A stretch of 64,000 nt of DNA from the IMG/VR virus record IMGVR_UViG_3300025592_000986, one strand, 5' to 3'. The notes under the pieces are model-generated. The model was not told the origin of the DNA and ran no database searches. It worked only from the letters and a program-made list of their open reading frames with translations. A program made the position numbers and the translations under genes. Positions 14,933 to 42,134 of the stretch are shown piece by piece. Each line of letters opens with the position of its first letter. Within the stretch, counting starts at the first letter, position 1. The stretch comes from a virus.

Positions 14933-17900
14933 TTATTCTTCCTCCTCGCAAATCTCTACCGGTAGTCCTGCCGGGTTTGCCCCTTCGACCGTGCAGTTTG
15001 CTTGTTTTTGTCTTCTTCCTGGCTCTTCGCCTGGTAAGTGTGGTAACGAAAGTGCTAAAAATCCAACTGGACCGAGAAATGGTCCGTACGCATTGCCTGA
15101 TCTCTGGGAAACTGAGTTTACTGTATGGTTCACCGACTTTAATAAACTCGCTACACCTCGTCGGACTTTGCCTGCATTGGGCGGAAAGATGCCGCTGATT
15201 ATCTGAAGTACAGACAAAGAAATATCAACGGGTGCTGCCAAAGTCAGTGGTGCAACTGTATTGTCATCGGTGTTTAAATATCCAGACGTGAATGATCTGC
15301 TCGAATTTGAAGATAAATATGGAGGACTCTTTATGGAGCCCCAAGACAACCCATCTCTCAACTTACAGGGGTCTCTGTCGTATATCTTCTTCATCTGAGC
15401 GAATGCTGGGTCTACGAGTGCTGCCTGTCCCTTTATAGCGATTATAGGTGCCATTACCACCATCTTTGCTATCTGCGGAACCAGATCACCCAAGAGTGCT
15501 TCCGCTACGTTCCCAAAAGGACCAGAAGCGCCTTGGTTACCCTTCATCACAGCAGGATATTCATCGCCACTTATGAGGCCTTCATCGCCAGAACCTATAG
15601 ATTTTTTGTTTTGCAGTATCCTGTACATAGATCTTATCGACCCTCTAGTCCCACCAAGAAAGTCTCTAAATCCACGTTTTGAATCGAAAAAGTTTTCTTC
15701 ATTTATAAAATACAGTGCAGCCATACGATTTAGTGGGAAAATCTCTTCGAATAACATTTTGACGTCGGAATTGTAGTCTTCGCTTATAATTTTTCCATCT
15801 TTCAATCCAAGTAAAGAGTTTATTAGTGTGTCCTCATATGAATTAAATACGTTCTCCGCTGTTTCTCTTGGCTGTATTCTGCTGTTTGTGTATATGGCAA
15901 AATTGCCCATACAATCAACAAGGTTTTCTACCTTTGCTAACTCAAATACAAAGTGTTCAAATTGATCGACTCTGACTGGTCCGAGCTTCATAGATGATAA
16001 ATATTGAGAGTAATTAGACAGGTTTATTGGGATAGACCCACCCCCTTCGCCAATAACAACCTCTTTGCTAGACGTGCTACCAAAAATGCCGATGTCGCCT
16101 TGATATTCGTCGAAATTTGTAAACACAGGGGCGGTCAACTGAAACGTTTCATATCCAGGGATGTAAATCAATCGTAAACCAACTACAGTATTTTCCAAAA
16201 CATAATGCAGCGCATTTTGAAAACTTGTTCCGCTTTCATTGTTTATAAAATCCGGTGCGACTGGGGTGTTGAGAACCTCTAACAGTTGTTCATACTCGCC
16301 AAGTGTCATTCTCCTGCTTAAAGCGAAGTGCAAGTCTGGATTAACTAATCTATTATCTCTTTGTCCATCTTGCCTTTTAGCATAAAGCCTGTATCTGTTT
16401 TCGGACGAGTCTCTTTGACCGTTCGCGGTCGCCAAAGCATAATACAGAGCATCAATCGCTTTTGCCAAATAGTTTGGATCATTTTGCGGTGGCTTTACAT
16501 AAAAATACTGTTCTACCCTGAATTGTCCGTGAGGATTTTGCCGACCTAGGGTAGGATAGGATGAGTAGTCCAAGTACAAACTGTTAGGTCTGGAATCGCC
16601 AAAAATTTGAGAGCGGGACAAGACACTCTTGCTCGACTCATATTGATCAATTAATTGACTAAAGAATTCTTCTTTGTAAGATGAGAACTCTGGTTCAAAC
16701 AAATCCTCTGCCATTGTGATAACTTCCTGCTGAACGTCTTGCATTAGTTTAGCTATAACCGACACCAACGCATCCTTATTGTCAGATTGATTTGCTATTT
16801 TCTTAACTCTGTCATAAAAGTTTATCTTATATTGTTGAGAGTTTTGAAAATCTCTCTCAAGAGTCGTCTCCATATAATCATATAGGTACTGTACAATAAA
16901 ATCCTGACCTAGAATTTGTGAAGGTCTAAATCTAGAAAAAAGAAAGATACCCTTCAAAATAAACTCGATGACAAAAGTTCTGATATACAAAAATACTAGT
17001 TGATCAGAAAAGCTTTCTTCGAGAGGGCCTGGTTTGCTGAAGTCTCTATTTATTGGATTATTTTCTTCCCTACTTAACGAATCTTTATAGTCTTCCATTG
17101 CTTGTTGTCTTATCTTTTCGAAGTCTATTGGGCGATCTTTGTTCTTTATAAGACAAACCTTATCAGACCTTACATCTTCAAAATACTTTTCGGAGATTCT
17201 TGTTGATAATTCGCTTATTTGTCCTACATTAAAGTATCTGGAAGTCGAGACGCTTTCGGCAATCTTGTCCATAAAGTTTTGAGACAACATTGTAAAATGA
17301 GAAAGTTCGTAGCTCGATTCATCTGTATCTCCGTATGAAATCGCTTTCCATAGAATTGAGTCAGTGTTCCAGTTTTTTAACATTGGCTCTGTAAAGTATC
17401 TATTCTCCGCCAGGTCCCTGAAATATAGCCTGTTAATTTTTGATTCTTCCACGCTTTTCTCAAGGGAGTTCCTTACAAATTGCGCAAAGGCTTCTGGCCT
17501 TAAAAGCTTCTTTGTATCAGTGTTTTGCATATCCGGTGCAGACAATCTGAGGTCTCTTAATTGTTCAGACATCTCTTCGTGATAATTGAAGGTCTGCATT
17601 TGTCTCAACTCACTTTCAAAAACGCGAGCAGGTCTATCAACCTGAAAGCAGTCCTCTGGAGTGTGGACGAAGAACTGATCTACTATTTGACAATTGAATT
17701 GATCTTTAACACGATTGTCCACAACTGAATCAGTAAACTGCTCCAAATTATCTTGTGGAAACTTGGTTGTAGAGTTTATTCTATATTGTAATTGTGGGCC
17801 TTGCTTTTCGAGGTCGTATGTCCCAGCAAGATCGAACGCTAATTCAAGAAGGCCAGTAAACTCTATGCCTGTAAACTTTGGATATGGTCCAGAGGTTATT

Positions 17901-20900
17901 CCAACAAAGTTGTTTTTTGGCTCCAAAAGATAGTTCCTAAATGAGGGAAAGATACTCGCCTCCTGTCTGATGTTCTTTGAAGGGATTAGCATTATCTTTT
18001 CAAACAAGTCCGAGTCAATCTTGTCAGCTAAATTGAAAACTAAGTCAGGGGCTGGCTCTACATTTGTAACTCTCCCATTATCATCAATAGTGATGACGCC
18101 TGGTTTTTTAATTTTGGTAAAATGATCATCGGCCGGATTTGGTTCTTCGACCTGACGGCGTACAAACTCGTGTTGTGCCATACCAACGTGGTCATATTCT
18201 GGGTCATCTGGATTTAGCGGTCTTTGTGAAGCTTCATAAAATGTCGGGACATATCCAGATAGATCGTTGTCAAACACCATCTCTATGTTTCCAAACACGC
18301 CCTTAGAGGCCAATCCCGCCAGTTTGAGACTGTTTTCGTTCATATATGGGTTAGGCAAGCTTTGAGGCCCTAACTCCGCCACAAGGGCATCCATAGGGTT
18401 CTTTTTGAGCAAACCTCTCATCGCCTCCCTTCTTGCAGATGCGTCGGCAAGCGCTCTTGATATTTCATCCTCAGATGCATTCGCTGACTCTAAGGTTTCT
18501 CTAAGAAGTATATCGCCAGCGCCGATATCATCTGGACATCGAACATCGCCTAACACTATGTCTGGGTTTTGTGAAATCTTGTTTAAAAGGTCATCACTTA
18601 CAAAATCACCAACAGTTTCAAAAATTTCTTGAACGACTCCCGTATCTTGAACGTAATTCTTTAGGTCTGAGCAATCTGATTTTATTACAGTCAATATTAT
18701 GCCTAGAGTGTCTTTGTCCGCGTTGCCGGTTAATAACGAGGATATCTCGTTTGGAGTCAAGGCCAAGGATATGCTTTCAAATATGTTAGCGATATTGGCC
18801 AGCATATTTGTTGGAACCCCAACTCTTTCAAAAGACTTTATTGCAACCGTCGTTATTCTCGCTACTTCGCTGGGGCCTGTGCCCCCGTACACTTGAGAGT
18901 TTGAAATGCTAGGCATCAAGTCTTTTGATAGTTTACCGTTTATGAGATCATTTATCTTTATGTCTCCAACGGCACCTCCAAGAAGATCTGGCGCGTTCTT
19001 CGATAACGTCTTTAAAATATCCCTGATCAACCCACTTAAGAGACTTGTAAGTATATCTGAAATCGCGACCTCTAGATTCTTAACGATAAGTTTAATTGGA
19101 TCAAACGTTGGGAGCTTTGGTATTTCAGGTATTTTAAAATCAAAATCCCATTCCGACAAAACCTCTTCCGCATTCACGTCGGGCAATATTTTAAGATAGT
19201 CTATAAACAGTGCCCAGAAATCGTACCTATCGAAAAACTCAGCAAACAACTCTCCAAGATCTGAGAAGTCCATATCGTAGTTCAGTTTGTCAGTCACAGA
19301 GTAGGCACCTTCAATTGCATTTTTATAAAGCGTATTCTTCGCGTTTAAAAACCCAGGGTCTAAATCAACATTTAAAGATTTGGAAACAAGGTTGATAGGA
19401 CTATTCAACACCTGTCTTACGTCCACGTCTGCTAAATTAAAATCAATCTTCGGCGTAGGGTGATGGTGTTTCAACAGGAATGCGGACGCATTTCCATAAC
19501 TACTGGGGCTTTGAGAGATCGATGTGTTGTTTGATTGAACATTTCTTTGCTTCTTCAACAGTGGTAATTGCATTAAGTAACTGACTGTCGTAGAGTTTGT
19601 AATCGGACTAGAGTTGAGAAAACTTTCAAATCCAGATGTTAAAACACCAGGCACATCGTTTAAAGACACCAGTGCGATTTTCTTTATTTTTGCACCAGCG
19701 AATCCCCCTATGCCCTCACCCGGTCTTATGGTCGGCTCATAAGATATCAATAACGTTCCAGAATTTTCCTTGCTTATTATAAAATCGTTATCTTTTGCCA
19801 ACTTCTTTAGTTTACCAAGAAGTCGAGATAAACGATCGGCCTCCTTGTTCAATGACAAGTTCTCGGGCTTTATTTTAATTCCGGTTTCGGAGAATGACTT
19901 TACCTGTTTGTCGTACGACTTCATCAGTTTAATAGCAGCTTTGACATCCTGTTCAATATCTGAAATCTTGTACGGGATTGTCACCGGAAAAGGCTCGAAG
20001 TCCATCCTTTTCTTTGCAAAATCTGCGGCTTCCTTCGCAGATTCTAGATCCACTAACTCAGATGCAGATTTTATCCCCAAATCGTATTGTTGTCTCAGCA
20101 TTGACAACTCTCTCTCATACTTCTTAAGAAACTTTTTTACAGCCAGAGCATCTCTAGACTTCTGGATTAGAGCGTCCTCATCATAATTGCTTACATCCAA
20201 GCCTAGTGACTTTAACCTAAGCGCAACCTCTTCCAATACTGGGGCAATTTCCTCGTCTATATCCACCAGTTCAGTAAAGGCGGTAGTGCTTGTTATAGGG
20301 GCTCGCGGAATTAAGTCAAACATTTCTGTTCTAACACGAACAAGCGCTTTAAAGGTGGAGCTTGCGCGAGTCTCTGGTATGTATATTTTTTTTACGGCTG
20401 CAAAGATGGGCTGGTCACCTTCTGCAGTGCTTTGGCCAAATAAAACATTGATGGATTTTCCCGACTCATCTGCACCTACCGTTTCAAGAATGTTTAGGTC
20501 GTCGACAGTTAAGACACACCTTGTGTTCTCTAGTGGTCTTTTTTGGTATTTGATTATGGGCAAGAACGCTTTTCCCGCATCTGTAGATAAGTCTACTTCC
20601 CACTGGGTTTCTTTATTATAATATTTGAACATTTCCCTTACGCCGCGAGCAAGGATATCAGTTCCGTTGTTCTTAAGGTACGACTCGATGCTTGTGCCGC
20701 CGAGCTGGCTTCGAGTTACGCCGATTGAAGTAACAACGTAGTAATAATCTGGATCCTTAAACGGCTCGTTGACGACTTCTGACGGTCTCAAGCTTTCTAA
20801 TATATTGTCCGGTTCCAGAATCGCTTCTGGTGTTACTGATTCCAGTTCCCTCAAGACCGGATCAACACAGTCAGCAAGGGTGATCCCCCCCTCTGGTAGC

Positions 20901-21301
20901 GTTACCGATGGTAGTGTGACTACAGTGTGAGGGTCACTGTAAAAGAAATCTGAGGTTAGGGGGCTCAGGCCAGCGACGGACATTGCGCTAAATGTTGCTG
21001 GGCCAAGAGAACCAAGCTCAAAGTCAAATTCAGCAGGAGTATCTAGACTGCTGTTGTCGAGTGGTGACCAGCCCGCAATCTTACTTATAGTATCAACGTT
21101 CTGCCTCTGCCACCTCATAAGGTGGCTTTTCGTGTCCGCGTCAAACAGGGCATTACTGTCAGGCAGTCCAAGAAACTTTTTTAGGACCAAAATATTAGTG
21201 TCTTTGGCTCCCATTGACAGAGGCAAGTGAAAGTTTACACTCGTACCGACGTCTGAAACGAGGAGAAAGTCTTTTTGAGTTAGTAGTTTTTTATTAATCA
21301 T
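14933..21301 (-). CDS. Large tail/baseplate-associated protein (2122 aa) with an N-terminal peptidoglycan-binding-like domain
   Basis: N-terminus LSMGAKDTNILVLKKFLG...FDADTKSHLMRWQRQN...GSLGPAT resembles PG_binding_1. Largely helical, and lies between the spike-like and gp25-like genes. Confidence 0.55.
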   Translation of the reverse strand: MINKKLLTQKDFLLVSDVGTSVNFHLPLSMGAKDTNILVLKKFLGLPDSNALFDADTKSHLMRWQRQNVDTISKIAGWSPLDNSSLDTPAEFDFELGSLGPATFSAMSVAGLSPLTSDFFYSDPHTVVTLPSVTLPEGGITLADCVDPVLRELESVTPEAILEPDNILESLRPSEVVNEPFKDPDYYYVVTSIGVTRSQLGGTSIESYLKNNGTDILARGVREMFKYYNKETQWEVDLSTDAGKAFLPIIKYQKRPLENTRCVLTVDDLNILETVGADESGKSINVLFGQSTAEGDQPIFAAVKKIYIPETRASSTFKALVRVRTEMFDLIPRAPITSTTAFTELVDIDEEIAPVLEEVALRLKSLGLDVSNYDEDALIQKSRDALAVKKFLKKYERELSMLRQQYDLGIKSASELVDLESAKEAADFAKKRMDFEPFPVTIPYKISDIEQDVKAAIKLMKSYDKQVKSFSETGIKIKPENLSLNKEADRLSRLLGKLKKLAKDNDFIISKENSGTLLISYEPTIRPGEGIGGFAGAKIKKIALVSLNDVPGVLTSGFESFLNSSPITNSTTVSYLMQLPLLKKQRNVQSNNTSISQSPSSYGNASAFLLKHHHPTPKIDFNLADVDVRQVLNSPINLVSKSLNVDLDPGFLNAKNTLYKNAIEGAYSVTDKLNYDMDFSDLGELFAEFFDRYDFWALFIDYLKILPDVNAEEVLSEWDFDFKIPEIPKLPTFDPIKLIVKNLEVAISDILTSLLSGLIRDILKTLSKNAPDLLGGAVGDIKINDLINGKLSKDLMPSISNSQVYGGTGPSEVARITTVAIKSFERVGVPTNMLANIANIFESISLALTPNEISSLLTGNADKDTLGIILTVIKSDCSDLKNYVQDTGVVQEIFETVGDFVSDDLLNKISQNPDIVLGDVRCPDDIGAGDILLRETLESANASEDEISRALADASARREAMRGLLKKNPMDALVAELGPQSLPNPYMNENSLKLAGLASKGVFGNIEMVFDNDLSGYVPTFYEASQRPLNPDDPEYDHVGMAQHEFVRRQVEEPNPADDHFTKIKKPGVITIDDNGRVTNVEPAPDLVFNLADKIDSDLFEKIMLIPSKNIRQEASIFPSFRNYLLEPKNNFVGITSGPYPKFTGIEFTGLLELAFDLAGTYDLEKQGPQLQYRINSTTKFPQDNLEQFTDSVVDNRVKDQFNCQIVDQFFVHTPEDCFQVDRPARVFESELRQMQTFNYHEEMSEQLRDLRLSAPDMQNTDTKKLLRPEAFAQFVRNSLEKSVEESKINRLYFRDLAENRYFTEPMLKNWNTDSILWKAISYGDTDESSYELSHFTMLSQNFMDKIAESVSTSRYFNVGQISELSTRISEKYFEDVRSDKVCLIKNKDRPIDFEKIRQQAMEDYKDSLSREENNPINRDFSKPGPLEESFSDQLVFLYIRTFVIEFILKGIFLFSRFRPSQILGQDFIVQYLYDYMETTLERDFQNSQQYKINFYDRVKKIANQSDNKDALVSVIAKLMQDVQQEVITMAEDLFEPEFSSYKEEFFSQLIDQYESSKSVLSRSQIFGDSRPNSLYLDYSSYPTLGRQNPHGQFRVEQYFYVKPPQNDPNYLAKAIDALYYALATANGQRDSSENRYRLYAKRQDGQRDNRLVNPDLHFALSRRMTLGEYEQLLEVLNTPVAPDFINNESGTSFQNALHYVLENTVVGLRLIYIPGYETFQLTAPVFTNFDEYQGDIGIFGSTSSKEVVIGEGGGSIPINLSNYSQYLSSMKLGPVRVDQFEHFVFELAKVENLVDCMGNFAIYTNSRIQPRETAENVFNSYEDTLINSLLGLKDGKIISEDYNSDVKMLFEEIFPLNRMAALYFINEENFFDSKRGFRDFLGGTRGSIRSMYRILQNKKSIGSGDEGLISGDEYPAVMKGNQGASGPFGNVAEALLGDLVPQIAKMVVMAPIIAIKGQAALVDPAFAQMKKIYDRDPCKLRDGLSWGSIKSPPYLSSNSSRSFTSGYLNTDDNTVAPLTLAAPVDISLSVLQIISGIFPPNAGKVRRGVASLLKSVNHTVNSVSQRSGNAYGPFLGPVGFLALSLPHLPGEEPGRRQKQANCTVEGANPAGLPVEICEEEE

Positions 21302-22943: not shown

Positions 22944-24623
22944 TCAAAAAAAGTTTATTCCATATATGACATCCTTCATTTCTTGAAGGGATCTGTTCAT
23001 TCTTCGTCGTCCTCCGCCAAGCTTAGATTGGATAGTTTTTCCGCTAGCGAAGTAGTTCCTGGTGTATCCGAATCCGTAAACTTTTAAAAACTCGTCTGCA
23101 AAGTTAGATTTTCGTCGCACCAAATCTTTTGTAAACTGGTAGTGCCACCACTCAGCTTGCTGTTTTGGATCACCGTAACCCTTCACTAGCCGACCACCTT
23201 CGCTCAATGCGCCGCCATAAAATTGAAGCGGATTTCTGGTTCCTGGGAAGCCTTTTAAGGATCCTATTCTGCTAAACCCGTAAAGTTCTAAATAGTGTGT
23301 CATGTCTACAAACGGACCTTCGACATACTCCAGGTAGTGACCCCCACGAGTATTACTTGGAATCCAAGCAAGTATACGTTTGTTTGGAACTGCAGGGGTG
23401 GAAGGTGCCCCAGGGTTCAAAAAGTCTGAAAAAGCTTGTCTTACTCCAGCCCTAGCGTAAAATCTAAATTTACCAGAATTGCCAGGTTCAGGGGACGCTA
23501 TGTACAAAACCTGATTATCTTGATAATTTCCCTTGTGTTCTATCAATAGATTTGTATTAAAATCAATCGCTCTGCCCAAAGTGTGCAAACTAGTGCTGCC
23601 AGGCCTACCCCCGCCGCGCTGCACAAGTCCGCCTGACGTACAAATTGGGACGCCAAGTTCGCGTGGTACCTTCATTGCCTTTTGAAATTGAGCTTCAATA
23701 TCAGCCCTTAATTTGTTCGTCTCTGGCTTTCGATTTGCTTTTGATGGTTTGAAGTAGTATCTGTTAGTTTTCGGATTGACTCCTCTTTTGACGTCAGCTA
23801 TATATGCAGGTGGCAAAGGGATCCCCTCTGGGATCGGATCTGTTTTAAAACTTTTGGAGCCAGGGATTGGACCGATAGAAGCGAAGTCTTCCATATTGAA
23901 CATTGTTGCAGGAGTGATTCGGGCGGAGCCACCGACAAAAGCACCCGACGGTGAGGGTACACTAGGTCCTCCTGGACCACCTGACCCTCCTCCACCAGAG
24001 GCTGGTCCTTGGGACGTTTCACCTACCAATCCTTTGAAGACACCGTATCTGTGTTCATCTCTGTCCAGAAACTCAACGCGAGCAGTTTTGCCGACGGCGG
24101 CAGTTAACACATCCCCGAAATCACTAGAAACAGGATTTAGTATGGAGTAAAATCTTGGATAGTTTATTATCTTTGCGTAGTCTATTTCATTTGGGGAGCC
24201 CCCAGATGATAGGGCGCTTGGAATTTCATTAGAGGTCGCAGTTCCGCCAGCGGGGATACAATAGAATACGTATACTAGTCCGTCGCCGGACTCGAACTCT
24301 TGTTTTTGTTCCTCTGTTAGCATTTCCTTTAGTTCGTTTATGGTCTCTATATCCGGGCAAGAGGCTGGGTCTTTCTTTTCTACGTGTATTATTCTGGCAA
24401 CACGTTCGCCGGTGACACCATCATCAATTCTTAAAGGGGTAGAGTTCCTAGACAAGTCTTGAAACAATAAAGAAAACATATCCACACCGTTAGCTAGGCC
24501 GGGTGCGGGATCTAGACCATATTTGGCGTCAAACGTGCTAAACCTTCTACCGGAAAGACCTGCATCTGGGTTGGCTATAAGCTTGAGTTCTTCAATCTCT
24601 TTTTCAGTGAGAGCCAAAATCAA
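22944..24623 (-). CDS. Baseplate hub-associated peptidoglycan peptidase with an M15-like Zn domain
   Basis: SLHTLGRAIDF (SxHxxGxAxD) and EWWHYQF motifs after a G/P-rich linker; baseplate context. Confidence 0.7.
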   Translation of the reverse strand: MILALTEKEIEELKLIANPDAGLSGRRFSTFDAKYGLDPAPGLANGVDMFSLLFQDLSRNSTPLRIDDGVTGERVARIIHVEKKDPASCPDIETINELKEMLTEEQKQEFESGDGLVYVFYCIPAGGTATSNEIPSALSSGGSPNEIDYAKIINYPRFYSILNPVSSDFGDVLTAAVGKTARVEFLDRDEHRYGVFKGLVGETSQGPASGGGGSGGPGGPSVPSPSGAFVGGSARITPATMFNMEDFASIGPIPGSKSFKTDPIPEGIPLPPAYIADVKRGVNPKTNRYYFKPSKANRKPETNKLRADIEAQFQKAMKVPRELGVPICTSGGLVQRGGGRPGSTSLHTLGRAIDFNTNLLIEHKGNYQDNQVLYIASPEPGNSGKFRFYARAGVRQAFSDFLNPGAPSTPAVPNKRILAWIPSNTRGGHYLEYVEGPFVDMTHYLELYGFSRIGSLKGFPGTRNPLQFYGGALSEGGRLVKGYGDPKQQAEWWHYQFTKDLVRRKSNFADEFLKVYGFGYTRNYFASGKTIQSKLGGGRRRMNRSLQEMKDVIYGINFF

Positions 24624-24919
24624 TCCTCCGCTTCGTCGTCGTCCAATTGTATTAGATCGAAGAGTTCATCCTTCTCCTTATCAGTAATACCTTCGTGTCT
24701 AGATACCTGCTTTTGTAAAATCGCTGTCAACTTAACAAGCTGCTCGTTGGACCTTTGCAGGGTTTCTACGTATTTGGCCGCTATCATTCCCACCTTCTCG
24801 TGACGCTCTTCAGTGACCATCATATATTTCATAAGATTGGTTAAGAGCGTCTTGGTCGCTGCGCGATCATCTTTAATATTCTTAATAGAATTTGCTATAA
24901 AAGTTTCTAAGTCATTCAT
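24620..24919 (-). CDS. Hypothetical helical protein (99 aa)
   Basis: Clean ORF with ATGA coupling to the next gene, preceded by a late-type motif. Confidence 0.7.
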   Translation of the reverse strand: MNDLETFIANSIKNIKDDRAATKTLLTNLMKYMMVTEERHEKVGMIAAKYVETLQRSNEQLVKLTAILQKQVSRHEGITDKEKDELFDLIQLDDDEAED

Positions 24920-24927
24920 CGTACTAA

Positions 24928-24935
24928 TAATTAGA
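24928..24935 (-). promoter_or_regulatory. Putative late-promoter element TCTAATTA heading the baseplate operon
   Basis: Lies 8 nt upstream of ATG 24919, in the short gap after the sigma factor gene. Confidence 0.45.
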
Positions 24936-24946
24936 CAAGATAGAAA

Positions 24947-25648
24947 TTATATCCTATCATAGTCCCCTCGATCCCATCTCGTCTTAAAGATTCTATACTT
25001 GTCCCTAAGTTTATTGAGATTGTTAACGACTTGTTTGGTGTTCAACCCTGTTAATTCTCTAAGATAAAGATATACAGCTTTCTTGTTGAATATCTCAATC
25101 TGTTCAGCACTATTCAGCAAGATCTTTATAGCCTCTACTACTTTTTTCTCGTTCTCTTTTAAATTAACAGAATCCCACCTGTCGATCTCTGTCATGAGTG
25201 AGTGCCAGAACTCCTGCTGCTCTCTTCTCTCGATATAATAGTTACGGTCTTCAATTAGAGTTTCGTGATTCGCCTCTTGTATCACCTCATCATAGCTTAT
25301 TTCTTTTTTATTTCTGCTTGAGTTCTTCTTTATCTTGTGAATAAACCAATGCTTTGTTATAACAGAAAAGTAAGAAAACGCCTTGGAGCCTTTGTCTGGA
25401 TTATATTTGTCTAGAACAGTAGTTAGCCAAACCTTGCACTCTTCCTTCAACGGATCTATGTTTGGCAGGTTAGTAAATTTATAAGTGTAGATGATCTTCT
25501 CAACCATTTCACTGAACGCAGGTTGGATGAACTCGATATAGAGTTGCGACCTCGTAGAAAGATCATTTGCCTCATTGTATTGGATTATGGCATTTTCGTG
25601 ATCCTTGGTGAAATAATGGTTTTTAGTTTTAGCTTTCCTCTTCTTCAA
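24947..25648 (-). CDS. Phage sigma factor, T4 gp55-like late sigma
   Basis: Region-2-like LDKYNPDKGSKAFSYFSVI, N-terminal HYFT, C-terminal helical LRELTGLNTKQV segment; directly upstream of structural genes. Confidence 0.75.
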   Translation of the reverse strand: MKKRKAKTKNHYFTKDHENAIIQYNEANDLSTRSQLYIEFIQPAFSEMVEKIIYTYKFTNLPNIDPLKEECKVWLTTVLDKYNPDKGSKAFSYFSVITKHWFIHKIKKNSSRNKKEISYDEVIQEANHETLIEDRNYYIERREQQEFWHSLMTEIDRWDSVNLKENEKKVVEAIKILLNSAEQIEIFNKKAVYLYLRELTGLNTKQVVNNLNKLRDKYRIFKTRWDRGDYDRI

Positions 25649-25937
25649 GTTCCTCTTCCTCCGTTAAGGACTCTAAAGAAAATATGCTTTCAAATTCTTG
25701 CAAGTCGACTATTATGTCTTTTGTTTGTTCCATTAGAGTCTGAAGTGACTGGTCTCCATAATACATCTCTGATTCGTGCATAGCCTGCACCGACGCTAGG
25801 AAAGATTCAAAAGTCTCCTTCAACATATCGGTGTTAGTGCTCGCGATCATTAACCTCTTGGCCACTTTTGCTGCGTAGTATATCAAAATAATATTAAGAG
25901 TTATTGAAACTGCTAAGAACAGATACTCCATAGTCAC
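25629..25937 (-). CDS. Membrane-anchored coiled-coil protein
   Basis: Hydrophobic N-terminus YLFLAVSITLNIILIYYA followed by a helical acidic region. Confidence 0.65.
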   Translation of the reverse strand: MTMEYLFLAVSITLNIILIYYAAKVAKRLMIASTNTDMLKETFESFLASVQAMHESEMYYGDQSLQTLMEQTKDIIVDLQEFESIFSLESLTEEEELEEEES

Positions 25938-26188
25938 ATCTCCTTCTTCTTGATAGTTTTCTTTTCCTGTCGAATTTCTCTTTTGGCGTCTTTAATAAAG
26001 TTCTCCACCACATCTCCGACCTTGGCCGTCACAACAGGTACGGTAAGTTTACTAACCAACATAGATGGAATCTTTTCGATTGTATCGACTTGCTCACACA
26101 AAGAACAGACTTCTAGTGCCTCACTCATTAAGTGAAAAGCTTCAAAAACACCCTCACAGCATTGACACTTATAGGTATAAATGGGCAC
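25934..26188 (-). CDS. FmdB-family zinc-ribbon protein
   Basis: MPIYTYKCQCC...CSLC pattern. Confidence 0.85.
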   Translation of the reverse strand: MPIYTYKCQCCEGVFEAFHLMSEALEVCSLCEQVDTIEKIPSMLVSKLTVPVVTAKVGDVVENFIKDAKREIRQEKKTIKKKEM

Positions 26189-26391
26189 TAATCACTACCC
26201 GAGGTTGCTTTGGTTTCCGAAAGGTACTCTTCGGGTACTTCAAAGGTTGGTGGGTTGACAACTTGAAGCTCTTCGTCGTCAGAGACCGAAAAGTCGAATG
26301 ACTTTAAAATTGGAACGATGTCCGTCTCTGATAAGATGCTTTTTTGCAAGGCCATCATGACTGCACCTAGCGCTTGGTTTGAAAGTTTCAT
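26188..26391 (-). CDS. Hypothetical protein (67 aa)
   Basis: TAATG overlaps at both ends. Confidence 0.7.
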   Translation of the reverse strand: MKLSNQALGAVMMALQKSILSETDIVPILKSFDFSVSDDEELQVVNPPTFEVPEEYLSETKATSGSD

Positions 26392-26933
26392 TAGTCTTCT
26401 CCTATGTTTTTCAGAATGAAATTGACTAAATTGTCAACGGATTCATCTACTGTCTGGTTCATTGTGTTGATCACGAGGTCTGGGCTCCTTGGTTCTTCGA
26501 AAGGGTCCGATATTCCCGTAAAATTGTTTATTCTGTTTGGGTCGCCGATGGGAAGAAGTGCCTTGGCGTACAGTCCTTTCGGGTCTCTTTCGATCAGCTT
26601 CTCGATATCGCATTCGACATACACCGTTCTCGCGAGGCTGTTCTGCTGGGTAACCTCTTTGCGAACATTGTCATATGGATTGATCGCAGACATGATGCAG
26701 ATTACATTGTTTCTGGATAACACTTTTCCTACAAAAGATAGTCTTCTAATGTTTGTGTTCCTGTCCTCTTTTGAGAAACCTAGGTCCTTGCACAAACCTT
26801 CTCTATATTCGTCGCCATCAATAATTTCTACATTATGGCCCATCTCTTTTAACCTACTAACCGCCTTGAATCCCATTGTAGATTTCCCAGCGCCGGACAT
26901 ACCCGTCATTTGAACAAAAATACCACTCATCAC
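26391..26933 (-). CDS. cysC: Adenylyl-sulfate (APS) kinase
   Basis: TGMSGAGKST P-loop, DGDEYR, DLGFSKEDRNTNIRR, RDPKGLY, FTGISDPFEEP. Confidence 0.95.
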   Translation of the reverse strand: MMSGIFVQMTGMSGAGKSTMGFKAVSRLKEMGHNVEIIDGDEYREGLCKDLGFSKEDRNTNIRRLSFVGKVLSRNNVICIMSAINPYDNVRKEVTQQNSLARTVYVECDIEKLIERDPKGLYAKALLPIGDPNRINNFTGISDPFEEPRSPDLVINTMNQTVDESVDNLVNFILKNIGED

Positions 26934-27331
26934 ATATCCCCTAAATACTTAACAACCAAATTATGAATTGAAGAATCTACATTGTCTTTCCAAGAATCGT
27001 TACCAATTCTAACGCCTTCTCGTATGCTTGTTGCAGATATAAAACCAATGTTCTGCGGAGGGACGTGCTCGTTAAGTTGGTACCCAACGCCGCGTCCCCA
27101 ATTGACACTTTCAATGTCTGGGATGGTAACAACTTCAACATCGTTATCTTTGTAGACTTTTTTGATCATCTCTACTGTCTGCTGGGTTGTAAACGGGTTT
27201 TTTTCATCTGGTGGTATATCTCTCACTGCGATGAGGATCGGTTTGTTTTGAGATAACTTTTCATTAATCAGCCACTTGTGTCCGTTGTGAAATGGTTGCC
27301 ATCTGCCTATAAACATTGCTCTTTTATCCAT
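26930..27331 (-). CDS. HIGH-superfamily nucleotidyltransferase, NMNAT/cytidyltransferase-like; candidate minimal sulfate adenylyltransferase
   Basis: FIGRWQPFHNGH, KNPFT, ISATSIRE; overlaps cysC. Confidence 0.75.
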   Translation of the reverse strand: MDKRAMFIGRWQPFHNGHKWLINEKLSQNKPILIAVRDIPPDEKNPFTTQQTVEMIKKVYKDNDVEVVTIPDIESVNWGRGVGYQLNEHVPPQNIGFISATSIREGVRIGNDSWKDNVDSSIHNLVVKYLGDM

Positions 27332-28184
27332 CTGAAACTGCCCTTCCTTTTAATTTTTCCCAGTCTTTCTCTGGTCTTACATTTAAATTTGTTTTCCAAG
27401 CCCCCTTGAGGACGTTCATATTTATTCCGATTGAGTCTGCGTAAGTCATAAATGCATTAATATCTTTTGGAAAGCAGGAACCGCCAAACCCTCTACGCCC
27501 GTCGGGCCCAGGTACTTGTAAATGGGAGTCCCCAACGCGGCCGTCAGATACAAAACCTTCAACTGCCTTGTCCCAGTCGACATCTAACAGTTTATCAGCT
27601 ACTAACTTCATCTCGTTCATAAAAGAAACCTTGACAGCAAAAAAGAGATTGTTGAAATACTTTATCATCTCGGCTGTCTCGTACGTTGTTTCAATAAAAT
27701 AATTTGAACTAAACCTAGTTTCATAAAGCTCTTTCACTTTTGCAGAGCCTTGTCCGGCGGTTGAACCAAGAATAATTCTGCTCTGGTTGAGAAAGTCGAA
27801 CCTAGCGTGGCGTTCAGTCAAAAACTCTGGGTTGAAAACAACATTGATGTCTGGGTATTTTTCTGTCAGCCTGCGGGTTGTACCCGGTGTAACTGTGGAC
27901 TTGAGCACAAATACTGTTTGGCTCTCTGGGTGCTTCAGTCTTTTTATATCGTCGAATACACTCTCAACAATAGACAAGTCTATCAAGCCATCACTTGTCA
28001 TCGGAGTTGGGACGCAGACGAACACCACATCAGAATCATTAACCACCCCTGCAAGGCCTTGCGTAAAGCCGTCACCTGAGCACTTGTCTGGATCTTTGTC
28101 GTAGACTTTGACCTCCATAAACGGAATAAATGCGTGTGCGATCGCATTCCCAACAAAGCCGTTCCCAATAATACCTAACTTCAT
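27324..28184 (-). CDS. ugd: UDP-glucose/GDP-mannose 6-dehydrogenase family, short form lacking the C-terminal domain
   Basis: GNGFVG, FVCVPTP, KSTVTPGTT, FNPEFL, AEMIKY, GFGGSCFPKD. Confidence 0.85.
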   Translation of the reverse strand: MKLGIIGNGFVGNAIAHAFIPFMEVKVYDKDPDKCSGDGFTQGLAGVVNDSDVVFVCVPTPMTSDGLIDLSIVESVFDDIKRLKHPESQTVFVLKSTVTPGTTRRLTEKYPDINVVFNPEFLTERHARFDFLNQSRIILGSTAGQGSAKVKELYETRFSSNYFIETTYETAEMIKYFNNLFFAVKVSFMNEMKLVADKLLDVDWDKAVEGFVSDGRVGDSHLQVPGPDGRRGFGGSCFPKDINAFMTYADSIGINMNVLKGAWKTNLNVRPEKDWEKLKGRAVSDG

Positions 28185-28211
28185 ACCTCTAACCCTTCTT
28201 TGACATTTAAA

Positions 28212-29084
28212 CTATTTTGTCAAATCTTCTTTTAATCTCTCAAAAACATTTTTAAGTCCACTCTTGAGTGAGACCTTCGGGACCCACCCTAGAGCTTTAA
28301 ACTTCCCTAGATCTGCCTCGGTATACATAACATCGCCTTCTCTTGGTTCGACAAAATTAAATTTAACCTCTGGAAAATATTCCTTAACAACGTCTGCCAG
28401 TTCTAGTAAACTTATGTTGTCACCAGAACCAATATCATACCACGTACCCCACAGTTTTTTATCACTTATATTCTCGGCACAAAAGATGTTTGCAGAAACG
28501 ATGTCATCAACGTGTGTCATGTCCCTCCTCTGCTTTCCGTCACCAGTGATGAATGGGATTTTACCTTCAGTTATAAACTTTTTCCAATTACAGACCACAG
28601 TAGCATACTCACTATTGGCCTCTTGGTCGTAAGAATAAACATTGAAATACCTAAGAGCGACAGTCTTTAAACCATAAAGCTTGTTGTAGAGCAGGGTTTC
28701 CATCTCACCAACATATTTAGAAAGGGCATATGGGCTTGCAGGGCCATCACCATTCCCTATAACGGACGATGAACTACTGTATATTACTGGTATGTCTTTC
28801 TTTTTTGCCCAATCCAATATAACAGTTGTAGAGTTTACATTGTTTTCCATAACTAGACGGGGAAACTCTACACTAAAAGCCACCCTAGGTATTGCGGCGA
28901 AATGCACTACGACATCTATCGCGTTTGCCTCGTGCCCAACGTGGATACCCTTTATACCGCTACAAATGTCAAATGCGTGATTATTCTTGTAATCGTATCC
29001 GACCCAGGTGTGACCAAGCTCTTCCCACTTTTTAACAAAGTTTCCACCAATATAGCCGAGGTGTCCCGTGACTAGTGCTCTCAT
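28212..29084 (-). CDS. NAD-dependent nucleotide-sugar epimerase/dehydratase
   Basis: TGHLGYIG, SSSS, YALSK, LRYFNVY, GDGKQRRD. Confidence 0.92.
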   Translation of the reverse strand: MRALVTGHLGYIGGNFVKKWEELGHTWVGYDYKNNHAFDICSGIKGIHVGHEANAIDVVVHFAAIPRVAFSVEFPRLVMENNVNSTTVILDWAKKKDIPVIYSSSSSVIGNGDGPASPYALSKYVGEMETLLYNKLYGLKTVALRYFNVYSYDQEANSEYATVVCNWKKFITEGKIPFITGDGKQRRDMTHVDDIVSANIFCAENISDKKLWGTWYDIGSGDNISLLELADVVKEYFPEVKFNFVEPREGDVMYTEADLGKFKALGWVPKVSLKSGLKNVFERLKEDLTK

Positions 29085-29767
29085 AGATATCCCAATTCCT
29101 TTAGATATTTTTCAAAAACTGGTAATTCTTCAGGTGTACAGATAGATTTGTAGGCTTCCGAATCTTTGCCAATAGCTTTGTCGCTGACTTTTCTTTTGCC
29201 GTACTTCTTTTCGTTACCCAAACCCGCCCGAGCCAGAACCGAAACATTCCAGTCAAAAACCCAATCCTCTACATAATCAGGATATTCCGAAAAGGAGCTT
29301 TTAGATTTCAATCCAAACTTGGCCTCTATTTTTTTCTGCACCTGGTTAGGTGTTCTAACCAGGTCTTCGTAGGAAATTTCCAAATCTACAAGGTTGCCAA
29401 ACAAAACTTTATCCCTTTGCTCGATGCAGCTAATCCACCTTTCCGGCTTTACATAGTTACCATCTGACAAGATAACATCTCGACCGTCGCGAACAACGTT
29501 GATTATGCTGATATTGTCTTTAAGAACCTTGGCTGCTTGATATTGAGCGGATTTGTGGTAAGTCGTACTGAGAAATGCTGGTGGGTGTCTCTTTCCTATA
29601 ACGAAGTCTTGGTTGCTTTTGTATTCTAGAAACTCTTCAAAGCTTAGCTCGTGGCCATCAAAACCTTCTTTGTAAACGACCTCAGTGTCCCTGAAGGCGT
29701 AACACATCCTTAATAACAGTGTGGTGCCCGACTTTGCGCAACCTGTGATAAAAATCTTTTTACTCAT
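29081..29767 (-). CDS. PAPS-dependent sulfotransferase
   Basis: 5'-PSB loop GCAKSGTTLL, 3'-PB VRDGRDVILS, ISYEDLV. Start set at ATG 29767 (TAATG overlap). Confidence 0.85.
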   Translation of the reverse strand: MSKKIFITGCAKSGTTLLLRMCYAFRDTEVVYKEGFDGHELSFEEFLEYKSNQDFVIGKRHPPAFLSTTYHKSAQYQAAKVLKDNISIINVVRDGRDVILSDGNYVKPERWISCIEQRDKVLFGNLVDLEISYEDLVRTPNQVQKKIEAKFGLKSKSSFSEYPDYVEDWVFDWNVSVLARAGLGNEKKYGKRKVSDKAIGKDSEAYKSICTPEELPVFEKYLKELGYL

Positions 29768-30384
29768 TATATCTCCCAAGTCTTGTACTCTGGTTCTTTT
29801 GTTTTGTTTGAGTCGTGCATTCTATACCTATAAAATGGAATCCTCAAGTGGTGGATTTTGTATTCTTCTCCCAGTCTTTTCCTCAGTTCCTCTTCTTCTC
29901 TATGTCTCATTTTACCATTGTAGCCGCCAGAGGACAAAAAAAGATCAGTTCTGTACATTATACCACAAGAGATGTTGTTTTTTTCTGCATATTTCCTGTC
30001 GATCGTATCTTCAAAATTGTTGACTATCAGGTAGTCGGAAGAGACGCAAAAAGCGTCATGATTAGCCTCAAGATATTTAGACATTATAAAAGACATATCT
30101 TTATTTATGTAATCATCCGCATCTACACGAAAGAAGAATTGGCCACGAGCCTTTGAAATTCCTAAATTTGCTGCTGTGGCAACTCCAGAATTCGTGTTTG
30201 TCTTGAATGTCTTTATCTGATCTCCGAAGGGTTCTATCTTTGAGAGACTGTCATCAGTACTGCAATCATCAACCAATATAACCTCAGTGCCGGTGCCGTG
30301 TTGATCTAGACAACTCCTTAGACATCTTGGTAAATATTTTCCATAATTGTAATTTGTAACGATGATCGAAACCTTTGGACTCAT
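29767..30384 (-). CDS. Glycosyltransferase family 2
   Basis: VSIIVTNYNY, LVDDCSTD, RVDADD, YRYRMH. Confidence 0.92.
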   Translation of the reverse strand: MSPKVSIIVTNYNYGKYLPRCLRSCLDQHGTGTEVILVDDCSTDDSLSKIEPFGDQIKTFKTNTNSGVATAANLGISKARGQFFFRVDADDYINKDMSFIMSKYLEANHDAFCVSSDYLIVNNFEDTIDRKYAEKNNISCGIMYRTDLFLSSGGYNGKMRHREEEELRKRLGEEYKIHHLRIPFYRYRMHDSNKTKEPEYKTWEI

Positions 30385-31088
30385 ACCGCCTCCATAATAT
30401 CAAATTGTCTGATCAAATCTTTAAATTGTTTTAGAGACTCGTAGTCGAAAGACCCAAGGTGACCTTTTTCTCTATTTGACTGTGAAAAAATACTGCTTGT
30501 GTAGTGCTTCTCTAATATCTTTGCGCCGTTCAAGTAGGCCTTGAGTGCAGGCACTATTCCGATCGCGTGGTCACTGTAGCCGTGGTATCCACTCTCAGAA
30601 AACCTGCTTGGCATAATCTTCAACAGAGGGTCATCTAAATAAGTAGGATATTTAGAAACGCAGAACAAGTACCTTATGTTCTCCGAAAACCCAAATGGAA
30701 ATTCGTTAAGGGCGCAGGCACCTGTAGAAATAATCGTTGGTATGTCTAAACCAAGTATGGATTCACACAGAGACCTGTCTTCTCTGACTGTTCTGCTAGC
30801 TATCTTCATCCTTTTGATTCCGGCATCGAGTATCCACTTCAGTCTTTCTGAATCGAAAGGGGTCGCCATCAGTTCAATTGAGTGTTGGTCACAGAACTCT
30901 GTAAGTTCAAAAAACTGTGTTTTAGTCACATCTCGATATTTCTTGTCTTTTGTTCCGAAGTGTTTTTCGGAGTCTATCAATTGCACTTTCACGACGTCAG
31001 CACCCGAAATAGAAGCATTCAATGCCATTCGTTTTAGTTCAGACAAAGAACCATGGTGCTGATTGCATAAATCGACTATTATTTCCAA
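30381..31088 (-). CDS. neuB: NeuB-family nonulosonate synthase lacking the C-terminal SAF domain
   Basis: NQHHGS, GADVVKVQ, TPFD, KIAS, ISTG, CVSKYP, GYSDH, LEKHYT; TTG start with AGGAG SD. Confidence 0.88.
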   Translation of the reverse strand: MEIIVDLCNQHHGSLSELKRMALNASISGADVVKVQLIDSEKHFGTKDKKYRDVTKTQFFELTEFCDQHSIELMATPFDSERLKWILDAGIKRMKIASRTVREDRSLCESILGLDIPTIISTGACALNEFPFGFSENIRYLFCVSKYPTYLDDPLLKIMPSRFSESGYHGYSDHAIGIVPALKAYLNGAKILEKHYTSSIFSQSNREKGHLGSFDYESLKQFKDLIRQFDIMEAV

Positions 31089-31194
31089 TTAAGTACTCCT
31101 TGTTATTAGTAATATTATACAGACCATCTTTTGATAACTCAGACTCAACTTGACAAGAGCCGCATTATAAAACAGTTTTACTGGAATGTTCATA

Positions 31195-31860
31195 CTACCA
31201 CCAATACAAGCTTATGTTTTCGTTTTTATAACTTTCTAACACGTTAGCTTTTAGTTGGCGAAAAACGTTACTAGGCATTTTTCTCGAATGATCCTCGAAA
31301 TATATTGATTTAACGTTCTTATACGCGCCAGATTCATATAATCTTTGTAATATCTCATATTCCGCGCCCTCTACGTCCATTTTCAACACGTCTATGGGCT
31401 TGTCGATGGTGGCAATAAGCTCGGAAACATCCAGGCAGGTCACTTCCACGTTTAAACTCAAATCTGTTATATTGGTTTTTTCAGACATGAGTGTAGCTCC
31501 GCCGTTAAGCGCTGAAGCTGCCCTCTTGAAATAGAAAGTCTTTTTCTCGTTAGTTTTCCATATCGCAGAATTAGACAATACAATATTGTCGTTATCTGCA
31601 TAATTCTTCTCAAGCATAGAAAAGAACAGTGGGTGGGGTTCAAAAGCATACACCTTGCAGCCAACGGGCGACAAAACCCTCTCTACTTCGCCGTAGTTGG
31701 CCCCAATATCAAGAACGATCGAATCTGAGTTTAGGGACTCTATTTCTATCAACTCTTTAGTCTGCATTGCAGTCTTTTCTCGATCCGAATATTTGTCTGA
31801 TAAAACTTCTTCAGAAAATCTAAACTTTAAAAAATTAATCCCATCTAGGCCGTGCTTCAT
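31195..31860 (-). CDS. FkbM-family methyltransferase
   Basis: VLDIGANYG, YAFEP, LKMDVEGAE. Confidence 0.9.
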   Translation of the reverse strand: MKHGLDGINFLKFRFSEEVLSDKYSDREKTAMQTKELIEIESLNSDSIVLDIGANYGEVERVLSPVGCKVYAFEPHPLFFSMLEKNYADNDNIVLSNSAIWKTNEKKTFYFKRAASALNGGATLMSEKTNITDLSLNVEVTCLDVSELIATIDKPIDVLKMDVEGAEYEILQRLYESGAYKNVKSIYFEDHSRKMPSNVFRQLKANVLESYKNENISLYWW

Positions 31861-32405
31861 CTCTGGGTTCTCCCTTCTATTAGTTTTATGTCGTCGATGG
31901 TGTGTATATCGTGCACATCACAAACAAAGACACCGGTCTTTGTACTCAACTCTTTCTGGTTTACATACCAGGGCCTCATAATCCTAAAAGCAGCGTTCAT
32001 CATAAGATTCTTGTCAACGCTTATCAGCTCATTTCTGTCATATTTAAAGAACGTGTCTATTGCCTCGTCTAAAATGTCTCCGGTTATCTCTGGTGAGTTT
32101 GCTTGCAGCGAAACAACAGCGCTGCCGCTAAACTCTATAGAGTTGAAACAATTTCTAATCGCAACCATTTTGTACGTGTTGTCGTCTGAAAACTTTGGAT
32201 TTCTTTTGAACAGGTTCGCTCCAGATTCTACAGCAACCTCTGCTATCTCATCATCTTCTGTCGTGACCCAGACGGCATCTACCTTCTTGCTGTCCAGTGC
32301 GGCTTTTATAGACCAGTGCAGGAGGGGCTTACCCCAAATAGGGTAAATGTTCTTTTTACGTAGCCTTTTGGAGCCGCCTCGGGCGGGTATAATAGCTATT
32401 ATCAT
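31857..32405 (-). CDS. neuA: CMP-nonulosonate synthetase (acylneuraminate cytidylyltransferase)
   Basis: IIPARGGSKRLRKKNI, GKPLL, LQANSP, DIHTIDD. Confidence 0.88.
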   Translation of the reverse strand: MIIAIIPARGGSKRLRKKNIYPIWGKPLLHWSIKAALDSKKVDAVWVTTEDDEIAEVAVESGANLFKRNPKFSDDNTYKMVAIRNCFNSIEFSGSAVVSLQANSPEITGDILDEAIDTFFKYDRNELISVDKNLMMNAAFRIMRPWYVNQKELSTKTGVFVCDVHDIHTIDDIKLIEGRTQR

Positions 32406-41455: not shown

Positions 41456-41833
41456 CTAATCTCCCTTTATCACTCTGTGTGAGTCTTCGTCAAAATGTTC
41501 CGTAGAGAATTCAAACAATTCGCTATCTTCTATCGCATACATTTGGTGTCTAAGACCCCTATATACGTGAAAAGCTTGTCCAGGTAATAGTGTTAACTCT
41601 TCAGCATTGTTTATATCATCTTCTTCGGAATATTTTATCAACATTTTTCCAGATTGTAAGTAGAAGACTTCATCTTTTTTTACGTGATAATGCCAAGAGC
41701 ATCTCTTACCAATTTCAAAGTATAACAATTTGCCGCAATATTCGGATTTGTTCACTATCCATTTTTCGAAACCCCAGCCTTTTTTTACGAATTTGATATC
41801 TTGTATGTGCGTATCACTCACTGAAGTAGGCAT
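41456..41833 (-). CDS. Cupin protein, sugar isomerase-like
   Basis: KGWGFEKW, YCGKLL, CSWHYHVKKDEVFY, LRHQM, FEFST. Confidence 0.8.
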   Translation of the reverse strand: MPTSVSDTHIQDIKFVKKGWGFEKWIVNKSEYCGKLLYFEIGKRCSWHYHVKKDEVFYLQSGKMLIKYSEEDDINNAEELTLLPGQAFHVYRGLRHQMYAIEDSELFEFSTEHFDEDSHRVIKGD

Positions 41834-42134
41834 CGTGATTTACCCCCTTATCATCTATGTAAATATCTCCAGATGGTTTGCCAAGAAACAAGCTGTGATA
41901 TTTAACACCCCAAGAATTTAACTGCTCTCTGGTGAAATCATAAAAAAGTTTTGTCGCCGTGACTGGATCATCTTTTGTTCTGCCCATACCCCTGGCGGTA
42001 TAGAAAACTATTTCGTTTCCCCGTTCAAAAAGATCGTTGATGTGTCGTATTCTTCTTTCGTACGGCGATGCCTTGGAATAGTCACCCTCAGTGGTAGTAC
42101 AAATTGTACCATCAATATCAAAAACGTACTTCAC
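41814..42134 (-). CDS. Small HAD-superfamily phosphatase (capsule-biosynthesis phosphatase-like)
   Basis: FDIDGTIC, YTARG, GKP, YIDDK. Confidence 0.88.
   Translation of the reverse strand: MKYVFDIDGTICTTTEGDYSKASPYERRIRHINDLFERGNEIVFYTARGMGRTKDDPVTATKLFYDFTREQLNSWGVKYHSLFLGKPSGDIYIDDKGVNHDAYFSE

Follow-up and report, generated by a model that had tools for sequence, protein, structure and literature searches.

A small nucleotidyltransferase beside cysC in a marine myovirus

The 64,000-nucleotide stretch of IMG/VR record IMGVR_UViG_3300025592_000986 (hereafter the window, meaning this whole length of DNA) comes from an uncultured T4-like marine myovirus. Its minus strand carries a 133-residue nucleotidyltransferase with the HIGH signature (NT, protein P0001, 26930..27331), a candidate minimal sulfate adenylyltransferase, beside a gene for a kinase of adenosine 5'-phosphosulfate (APS), the 180-residue CysC (P0002, 26391..26933). 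A first-pass annotation had read this pair, together with a sulfotransferase, as a route from sulfate through APS and 3'-phosphoadenosine 5'-phosphosulfate (PAPS) to a sulfated glycan, with NT as a non-canonical ATP sulfurylase. All three genes are present on the minus strand with the motifs that had been quoted, and the sulfotransferase, the presumed consumer of PAPS, spans 29081..29779 or starts from an ATG at 29767. The genes of the region all lie on this strand and are densely packed: the start of the NT gene overlaps the stop of a dehydrogenase gene, its stop overlaps the start of cysC (ATGTGATG), and the genes are therefore expected to be translationally coupled. The reported lack of a canonical sulfurylase held as well, since hidden Markov models (HMMs) built from Sat and CysD sequences found no match at E <= 10 in the six-frame translation of the window.

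P0002 matches PF01583 with E 7.9e-44 and scores 166.5 bits against TIGR00455 (cut-off 138.7), an equivalog-level match, its closest APS kinase in the PDB being that of Synechocystis (5cb6, E 6e-39). The residues of DGDxxR, LGF, DR, NIRR and KGLY are invariant in an alignment of 15 NT-linked kinases. By the curated cut-off and these conserved APS-site motifs, the window kinase is classed as a true APS kinase. The sulfotransferase reading frame (29081-29779) scores above the gathering cut-offs of both Sulfotransfer_1 (PF00685, 33.6 bits, cut-off 22) and Sulfotransfer_3 (PF13469, 33.4 bits, cut-off 27), and shows at residues 13-19 the motif CAKSGTT, which resembles a 5'-phosphosulfate-binding (5'-PSB) loop.

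P0001 bears the motifs GRWQPFHNGH and ISATSIR. Its match to PF01467 (CTP_transf_like, 28.4 bits against a cut-off of 21) and the presence of HxGH and ISxTxxR place it in the HIGH superfamily. Across 34 diverse relatives, residues G9, R10, P13, H15, H18, P46, D72, R80, G83, Y84, S99, R104, W114 and V118 are near-invariant. The catalytic apparatus of the family (HxGH, the Arg of GRxQP, and ISxTxxR) appears intact from the alignment, in keeping with an active transferase. The GR(G)VGY loop is likewise near-invariant and is specific to the NT family; its R80 could be a family-specific anion site.

The nearest relatives of NT are archaeal nicotinamide mononucleotide adenylyltransferases (NMNATs), which agrees with the NMNAT-fold label of the first-pass annotation. 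An archaeal NMNAT comes first in a PDB sequence search both with P0001 alone (E 2e-6) and with the family profile (E 8e-18), where phosphopantetheine adenylyltransferase (PPAT) is next and no Sat appears among the 60 matches listed. Against MJ0541 (1f9a) the profile aligns in two blocks (8-81 with 5-79, and 82-131 with 108-155), skipping MJ0541 residues 80-107, which follow the DIE motif. On this alignment, the NT proteins are NMNATs from which about 28 residues after DIE, forming a helix-strand segment, have been deleted. We take this segment (about 80-107), from the M. thermautotrophicus structure, to carry nicotinamide-contacting residues. The AlphaFold (AF2) model of P0001 is a Rossmann-like fold with a predicted local distance difference test score (pLDDT) of 95.1, and its fold matches include NMNAT 1f9a (Z 14.1, root-mean-square deviation (rmsd) 2.6 over 129 residues, 29% identity), PPAT (Z 13.8), the Sat of T. 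thermophilus with bound APS (1v47, Z 10.4, rmsd 2.7 over 125 residues), five other Sat structures (Z 7.3-9.0), and cytidylyltransferases and HldC (Z 6-7.7). P0001 has the fold of the Sat catalytic domain, but this fold is common to the whole superfamily.

The curated family models do not claim the protein. P0001 scores 42.7 bits against 181.2 for TIGR01527 and 56.4 against 127 for NF002243, both NadM-type NMNAT models, with only residues 3-77 matching, and it has no match to PF01747 (Sat) at E <= 0.1. By these models P0001 would be classed as neither an NMNAT nor a Sat, yet as a member of their common superfamily. Among the 34 relatives, 16 have weak PF01747 matches (best E 6.4e-6; P0371, at 26 bits, passes the cut-off of 24.3); kinship with Sat on this ground was rejected as superfamily-level, HIGH_NTase1 and citrate-lyase ligase matching about as often. 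The ESM Atlas returned only viral clusters labelled 'cytidyltransferase' for NT.

Fusions, gene order and the distribution of sulfurylases

The NT family is large, with 2428 near-length matches, mostly marine. A search for longer proteins gave 131 matches, and among the 120 listed about nine in ten carry PF01583 beside an NT domain at 55-72% identity. Of the best 150 50%-identity cluster representatives in an exhaustive HMMER scan, 48 were fusions of NT and APS kinase, 35 in the order kinase-NT and 13 in the order NT-kinase; further 'unknown-NT' forms contained an APS_kinase domain in 4 of the 10 checked. One relative (P0169) is fused to Sulfotransfer_2, and one NT-APS kinase fusion (locus L015) has no glycan genes nearby.

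Gene order in viruses points in the same direction. NT always adjoins CysC in the related phage contigs (120-195 kb). NT precedes CysC in one lineage, where a Sulfotransfer_1/3 enzyme is encoded at the same position as in the window; in a sister lineage CysC precedes NT, DUF2061 is fused to CysC and the sulfotransferase is a Sulfotransfer_2 enzyme; the pairing of NT with CysC therefore survives both a flip in order and a swap of sulfotransferase family. Across IMG/VR, CysC lies on the same strand within 5 kb in 53 of 80 NT loci, and in all five of the remaining 27 that were checked a shortened APS-kinase-like domain sits directly beside NT.

DUF2061, a predicted membrane domain, was found N-terminal on a phage CysC (L007 5263-5988) and as a separate gene just downstream of a kinase-NT fusion (L016 9218-9442), and may be a recurring third partner of the NT-CysC module.

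Viral cysC genes have been treated as 'auxiliary metabolic genes' of assimilatory sulfate reduction (PMC10914622). In the 24 viral records examined (5 of them at least 90% complete), none encodes a Sat, a CysD or a PAPS_reduct-family protein above cut-off, which argues that the phage cysC here serves sulfation and not assimilatory reduction.

The survey of homologue neighbourhoods for cysC linkage or fusion, which the first-pass annotation had proposed, was strongly positive in cells too: beyond fusions and phage adjacency in both orders, 46 of the 80 species genomes have NT either joined to CysC in one protein or next to it. The cellular hosts comprise Acidobacteriota, Bacteroidota, Dadabacteria/Thermodesulfobacteriota, Omnitrophota, Planctomycetota, candidate phyla radiation (CPR) bacteria, DPANN archaea, a haloarchaeon and SAR11. 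Their gene neighbours confirm the sulfation theme. Two sulfotransferases lie upstream of the fused gene in an Omnitrophota genome, a Sulfotransfer_1 gene directly downstream of the pair in a Planctomycetota genome, and a Sulfotransfer_3 gene upstream of the pair in the haloarchaeon Halocatena pleomorpha; a Flavobacteriales metagenome-assembled genome (MAG) has CysC, NT, one unknown gene, a CysQ-like Inositol_P phosphatase and Wzx in a row.

The SAR11 member of the family has 130 residues with GRGVGY and ISATKIR (L088 5950-6342, in a Pelagibacteraceae single-amplified genome), and about 15 similar loci were seen (in L078-L097). Its neighbours in a surface-glycan island are a kinase-like gene, a family 2 glycosyltransferase (GT2) and a formate-dehydrogenase-like gene.

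Most cellular carriers show an APS kinase and no known enzyme to supply it. The first 20 genomes examined all have APS kinase, with Sat in 2, CysD above cut-off in 2 and weak CysD-like matches in 2 more; among 30 further fusion carriers there were 3 with Sat, 1 with CysD above cut-off and 4 with weak CysD-like matches, of which 2 are in Sat-bearing genomes. Counting the 46 carriers of fused or adjacent NT-CysC, 7 have Sat or CysD above cut-off and 4 more a weak CysD-like match, which leaves 35-39 without a known sulfurylase. NT carriers that do have Sat or CysD include G003, G004, G009, G102, G103, G110 and G112.

The weak CysD-like matches come from a protein of about 280 residues in Omnitrophota/Planctomycetes-type MAGs (G017, G018, G108, G110, G112, G116). 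It scores 185-228 bits against a TIGR02039 cut-off of 396, covers only positions 1-205 of that model and co-occurs with Sat twice; it is a divergent CysD or else a PP-loop enzyme of a different kind.

Three Dadabacteria-type genomes (G002, G013 and G014) present the gap most plainly. Each has a stand-alone NT (62-64% identical to that of the phage), a canonical CysC (E about 1e-70) and a CysH-like reductase, and neither Sat nor CysD was found in any of them, G002 being labelled a complete chromosome of 1.78 Mb. In G002 a PHO4/PiT-family transporter gene adjoins that of the CysH-like PAPS reductase (L191 5744-6757 and 4783-5526), the same arrangement as cysH-cysP of B. subtilis, where CysP is a sulfate permease of the PiT family; the G002 transporter is probably a CysP-type sulfate permease.

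As a control, we sampled 81 genomes from the order of G001, among which CysC occurs in 37, Sat in 33, CysD in none and NT in 5. Sat is present in all 32 CysC-positive, NT-negative genomes and missing from 4 of the 5 NT-positive ones (Fisher p = 7.6e-5). Two genomes carry an unpublished flag, G052, which has NT but no Sat, and G075, which has Sat but no NT; leaving both out gives the table (3, 1, 0, 31) with p ~6e-4 by hand calculation. NT is not a housekeeping NMNAT, because it occurs in only 5 of the 81 genomes of this order and lacks the counterpart of NMNAT residues 80-107. The sulfotransferase, CysQ and CysH contexts tie the NT module to sulfur.

The surrounding glycan island

Between NT and the sulfotransferase lie two nucleotide-sugar genes, both on the minus strand. 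The first encodes a short nucleotide-sugar dehydrogenase of 286 residues (27324..28184; TIGR03026 195.5 bits, cut-off 189.8; PF03721 and PF00984), which matches profile positions 66-187 of the NAD domain plus the central domain and is without the C-terminal UDP-binding domain. It is not a pseudogene, because the same short form (289 residues) is kept in related phage contigs. The second is an NAD-dependent nucleotide-sugar epimerase/dehydratase (28212..29084; PF01370, E 4.5e-39), whose position is conserved in the relatives. Immediately upstream of the sulfotransferase follows a GT2 glycosyltransferase (29767..30384, minus strand; PF00535, E 3.7e-28).

Further along is a NeuB-family protein of 235 residues (30381-31088, minus strand), which covers only positions 73-256 of the 329-position TIGR03569 and has a 237-residue form in the relatives, and a NeuA-like CMP-sugar synthetase at 31857-32405. 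A separate heptose-type module (41456-44104, minus strand) comprises a GT9-like gene, an HldC-like nucleotidyltransferase of 130 residues (42882-43274), a PfkB kinase and a cupin; P0001 and this HldC-like protein have no detectable similarity.

Viral markers in the window are a baseplate wedge protein, PhoH, and carbamoyltransferase and glycosyltransferase PHROGs. The baseplate similarity is distant, at about 30% identity (maximum 33%) to myophages of Microcystis and Flavobacterium, and a megablast of window positions 24000-32000 against cultured phages gave 0 matches and so no close cultured relative. Two giant open reading frames flank the baseplate genes on the minus strand, one at 1-11190 (>3730 residues, running off the window) and one at 14933-21301 (2122 residues); in related contigs the counterpart of a giant-frame protein bears Laminin_G_3.

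Proposed role in sulfate activation and its alternatives

We consider it very likely that NT belongs functionally to the PAPS pathway, and its genomic contexts make it probable that the protein is a minimal, non-canonical sulfate adenylyltransferase feeding CysC. The sulfurylase function is supported by comparative genomics (fusions, synteny and pathway holes), and it is the most economical reading because an intact adenylyltransferase is fused to APS kinase in lineages without another source of APS. The proposal of the first-pass annotation stands on this ground, with Sat and CysD absent from most carriers; the motif reasoning offered alongside it does not hold, since HxxH and ISxTxxR are superfamily-wide and not Sat-specific, and NT has a Trp where Sat has its sulfate-binding Arg. 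By descent, NT would derive from archaeal, NadM-type NMNATs and not from Sat, and would thus be an analogue recruited from NMNAT. We also lean towards a third evolutionary class of ATP sulfurylase, NMNAT-derived and about 130 residues long, which occurs by itself or in fusions with APS kinase of both domain orders. Sulfate activation would depend on such an enzyme alone in many Omnitrophota, Planctomycetota, Dadabacteria, Acidobacteriota, Flavobacteriales and CPR/DPANN members and in some haloarchaea, and large phages would carry it for glycan sulfation independent of host sulfur metabolism.

Mechanistically, NT would bind ATP, and sulfate would attack the alpha-phosphate to give APS and pyrophosphate. 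The coupled APS kinase would then phosphorylate the 3'-OH to yield PAPS, a step supported by homology, pulling the unfavourable first reaction forward as in fused PAPS synthases. The sulfotransferase, encoded three genes upstream, would subsequently transfer the sulfate to a glycan made by the neighbouring dehydrogenase, epimerase and GT2 genes of the large glycan island of the phage. In this way the phage would carry a self-sufficient module from sulfate via PAPS to sulfated glycan, and the same NT-kinase unit would do the same job in many bacteria and archaea without Sat or CysDN.

Several observations weigh against a sulfurylase function. In both sequence and fold, P0001 resembles NMNAT (Z 14.1) and PPAT (Z 13.8) more than Sat (best Z 10.4). 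When the NT family profile is compared with a profile of ten Sat catalytic domains by hhalign, the alignment is confined to the HxxH region (probability 89.6%), setting WQPFHNGH against RNPxHRAH with Trp11 opposite the conserved Arg of Sat, and the sulfate-binding QxR of Sat is not conserved in the NT family. From the yeast structure, we take the Gln and Arg of QxRN (in the QxRNPxHxxH motif) to bind sulfate in Sat, which also has a GRDHAG loop. Equating GRGVGY with GRDHAG is unsupported, as the alignment stops before GRDHAG. Two NT relatives are fused to sugar-pathway domains, one to HAD and one to a cupin of the phosphomannose isomerase (PMI) type. Some Sat or CysD genes could have been missed in carriers whose MAGs are incomplete. 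The complementarity in the control is partly circular, G021, G052 and G076 having an NT-linked shortened kinase as their only CysC match, and the control alone cannot separate replacement of Sat by NT from a module unrelated to sulfate.

Two subfamilies also fit poorly and may have another function. SAR11 homologues (35-40% identity, without the last helix) lie in glycan islands with no CysC nearby, Sat and CysC being encoded at other sites of the genome. Cultured phages of Xylella, Stenotrophomonas and Xanthomonas carry a fusion of about 245 residues that joins a truncated, APS-kinase-like P-loop domain (profile positions ~4-91 of 152) to NT, as in Xylella phage Bacata (L013 3590-4330) and Stenotrophomonas phage DLP6 (L014 3593-4324), and the fusion is annotated as hypothetical, 'kinase' or 'adenylylsulfate kinase'. 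The 4-kb flanks read around these fusions contain no annotated sulfotransferase, and in Bacata the fusion follows a COG3236/NADAR-like gene; their function is possibly a different one, such as NAD-related counter-defence.

These cultured-phage fusions, which are found in siphophages, also speak for a reading in which the NT-kinase pair makes some other adenylylated or 3'-phosphorylated nucleotide, either in NAD salvage, with the kinase acting on nicotinamide riboside and NT as the NMNAT, as in NadR, or as a PAPS-like donor in the manner of the CDP-amidate pathway of Campylobacter with its CysC homologue. The N-terminal motif of NT and its best PDB and NCBIfam matches are those of NMNAT, and with a kinase that does not act on APS the lack of Sat in carriers would be a trivial outcome. 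However, the window kinase scores above the APS-kinase equivalog cut-off with its APS-site motifs kept, NT lacks the NMNAT segment 80-107, and among the window reading frames that were scanned neither NadV nor any further gene of NAD salvage stood out. Phages, bacteria and an archaeon have sulfotransferases of three Pfam families close to NT or fused with it, a CysQ-like gene is linked, and the Dadabacteria-type genomes combine canonical CysC and CysH with no sulfurylase, so that we regard this explanation as decidedly unlikely. Only a little less doubtful is an accessory role, in which NT would be a regulatory APS- or PAPS-binding domain, or would act on APS, 3'-phosphoadenosine 5'-phosphate (PAP) or AMP, with APS coming from the Sat or CysDN of the host or from an unrecognised enzyme. 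Linkage shows a shared pathway and not which step, the seven carriers named above have Sat or CysD, and fungal ATP sulfurylase provides a precedent for a degenerate partner domain serving regulation. An accessory role is nevertheless unlikely, given that HxGH, the GRxQP Arg and ISxTxxR are near-invariant across the NT family and that most carriers show no other sulfurylase.

A role like that of TagD (CDP-glycerol) or HldC (ADP-heptose), in which NT would activate sugar or polyol phosphates needed to build the phage glycan, would make the cysC neighbour a mere co-resident of the glycan island. NT has the size of TagD/HldC-class enzymes and lies in such an island, the HAD and cupin/PMI-type fusions fit this activity, and in SAR11 the homologue is flanked by a kinase-like gene and a GT2. 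We judge it very improbable, however: the fold match to cytidylyltransferases and HldC is far weaker (Z 6-7.7) than that to NMNAT, and the window already has its own HldC-like nucleotidyltransferase with a PfkB kinase, a nucleotidyltransferase to which P0001 shows no detectable similarity, as well as the NeuA-like CMP-sugar synthetase. Fusions with APS kinase also occur where no glycan genes are nearby (e.g. L015), and the NT-CysC pairing stays when the gene order flips.

Sulfate activation is textbook biochemistry with, to our knowledge, two known enzyme types, Sat and CysDN, and the searchable literature, incompletely covered, yielded nothing relevant on a non-canonical ATP sulfurylase or on phage NT-cysC modules. 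If NT is a sulfurylase, it would fill pathway holes in many genomes, which lack a sulfurylase although they encode APS kinase, sulfotransferases or PAPS reductase, and would correct the annotations 'cytidyltransferase-like protein' and 'adenylylsulfate kinase' on thousands of genes. Viral cysC would be read differently, as a gene that stands here beside sulfotransferases without cysH and points to glycan sulfation. It would also give biocatalysis a compact means of regenerating PAPS, and would show clearly how an enzyme of NAD synthesis was recruited to sulfur chemistry through the loss of a substrate-binding segment.

Compared with known systems, NT resembles the archaeal NMNATs (MJ0541, 1f9a; M. 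thermautotrophicus, 1ej2) most closely in sequence and fold, sharing GRxQPFHxGH, NPFT, DIE, GY, S-x-T-x-x-R and the C-terminal W...V helix. It differs from them in being patchily distributed and not housekeeping, and in having APS kinase and sulfotransferases as partners instead of NAD genes. With Sat/MET3 (PF01747; 1v47, yeast 1j70) it has in common the HIGH superfamily and fold, the proposed reaction and the habit of fusing to APS kinase, but it is about one third of a full-length Sat, has neither the PUA-like N-domain nor the QxRN sulfate site, and shows no alignable GRDHAG loop. CysDN catalyses, coupled to GTP, the reaction that is proposed for NT, and is often fused or linked to CysC, whereas its fold is unrelated (a PP-loop ATPase with a GTPase) and CysD is absent from the window and most carrier genomes. 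A similar succession is found in PPAT and dephospho-CoA kinase (CoaD/CoaE), where a HIGH-fold adenylyltransferase is followed by a P-loop kinase acting on the adenosine 3'-OH, PPAT being also the second-best fold match of NT; here, in contrast, the kinase belongs to the APS-kinase family and not to CoaE, in a context of sulfotransferases and not of CoA genes. The closest parallel in architecture is the metazoan PAPS synthase (PAPSS1/2; 1x6v), in which, as in the commonest NT fusions, the APS kinase is N-terminal and the adenylyltransferase C-terminal, and the unfavourable sulfurylase step is coupled to the kinase. The PAPSS transferase is a canonical Sat domain, whereas the domain described here is NMNAT-derived, has about 130 residues and also occurs in the order NT-kinase.

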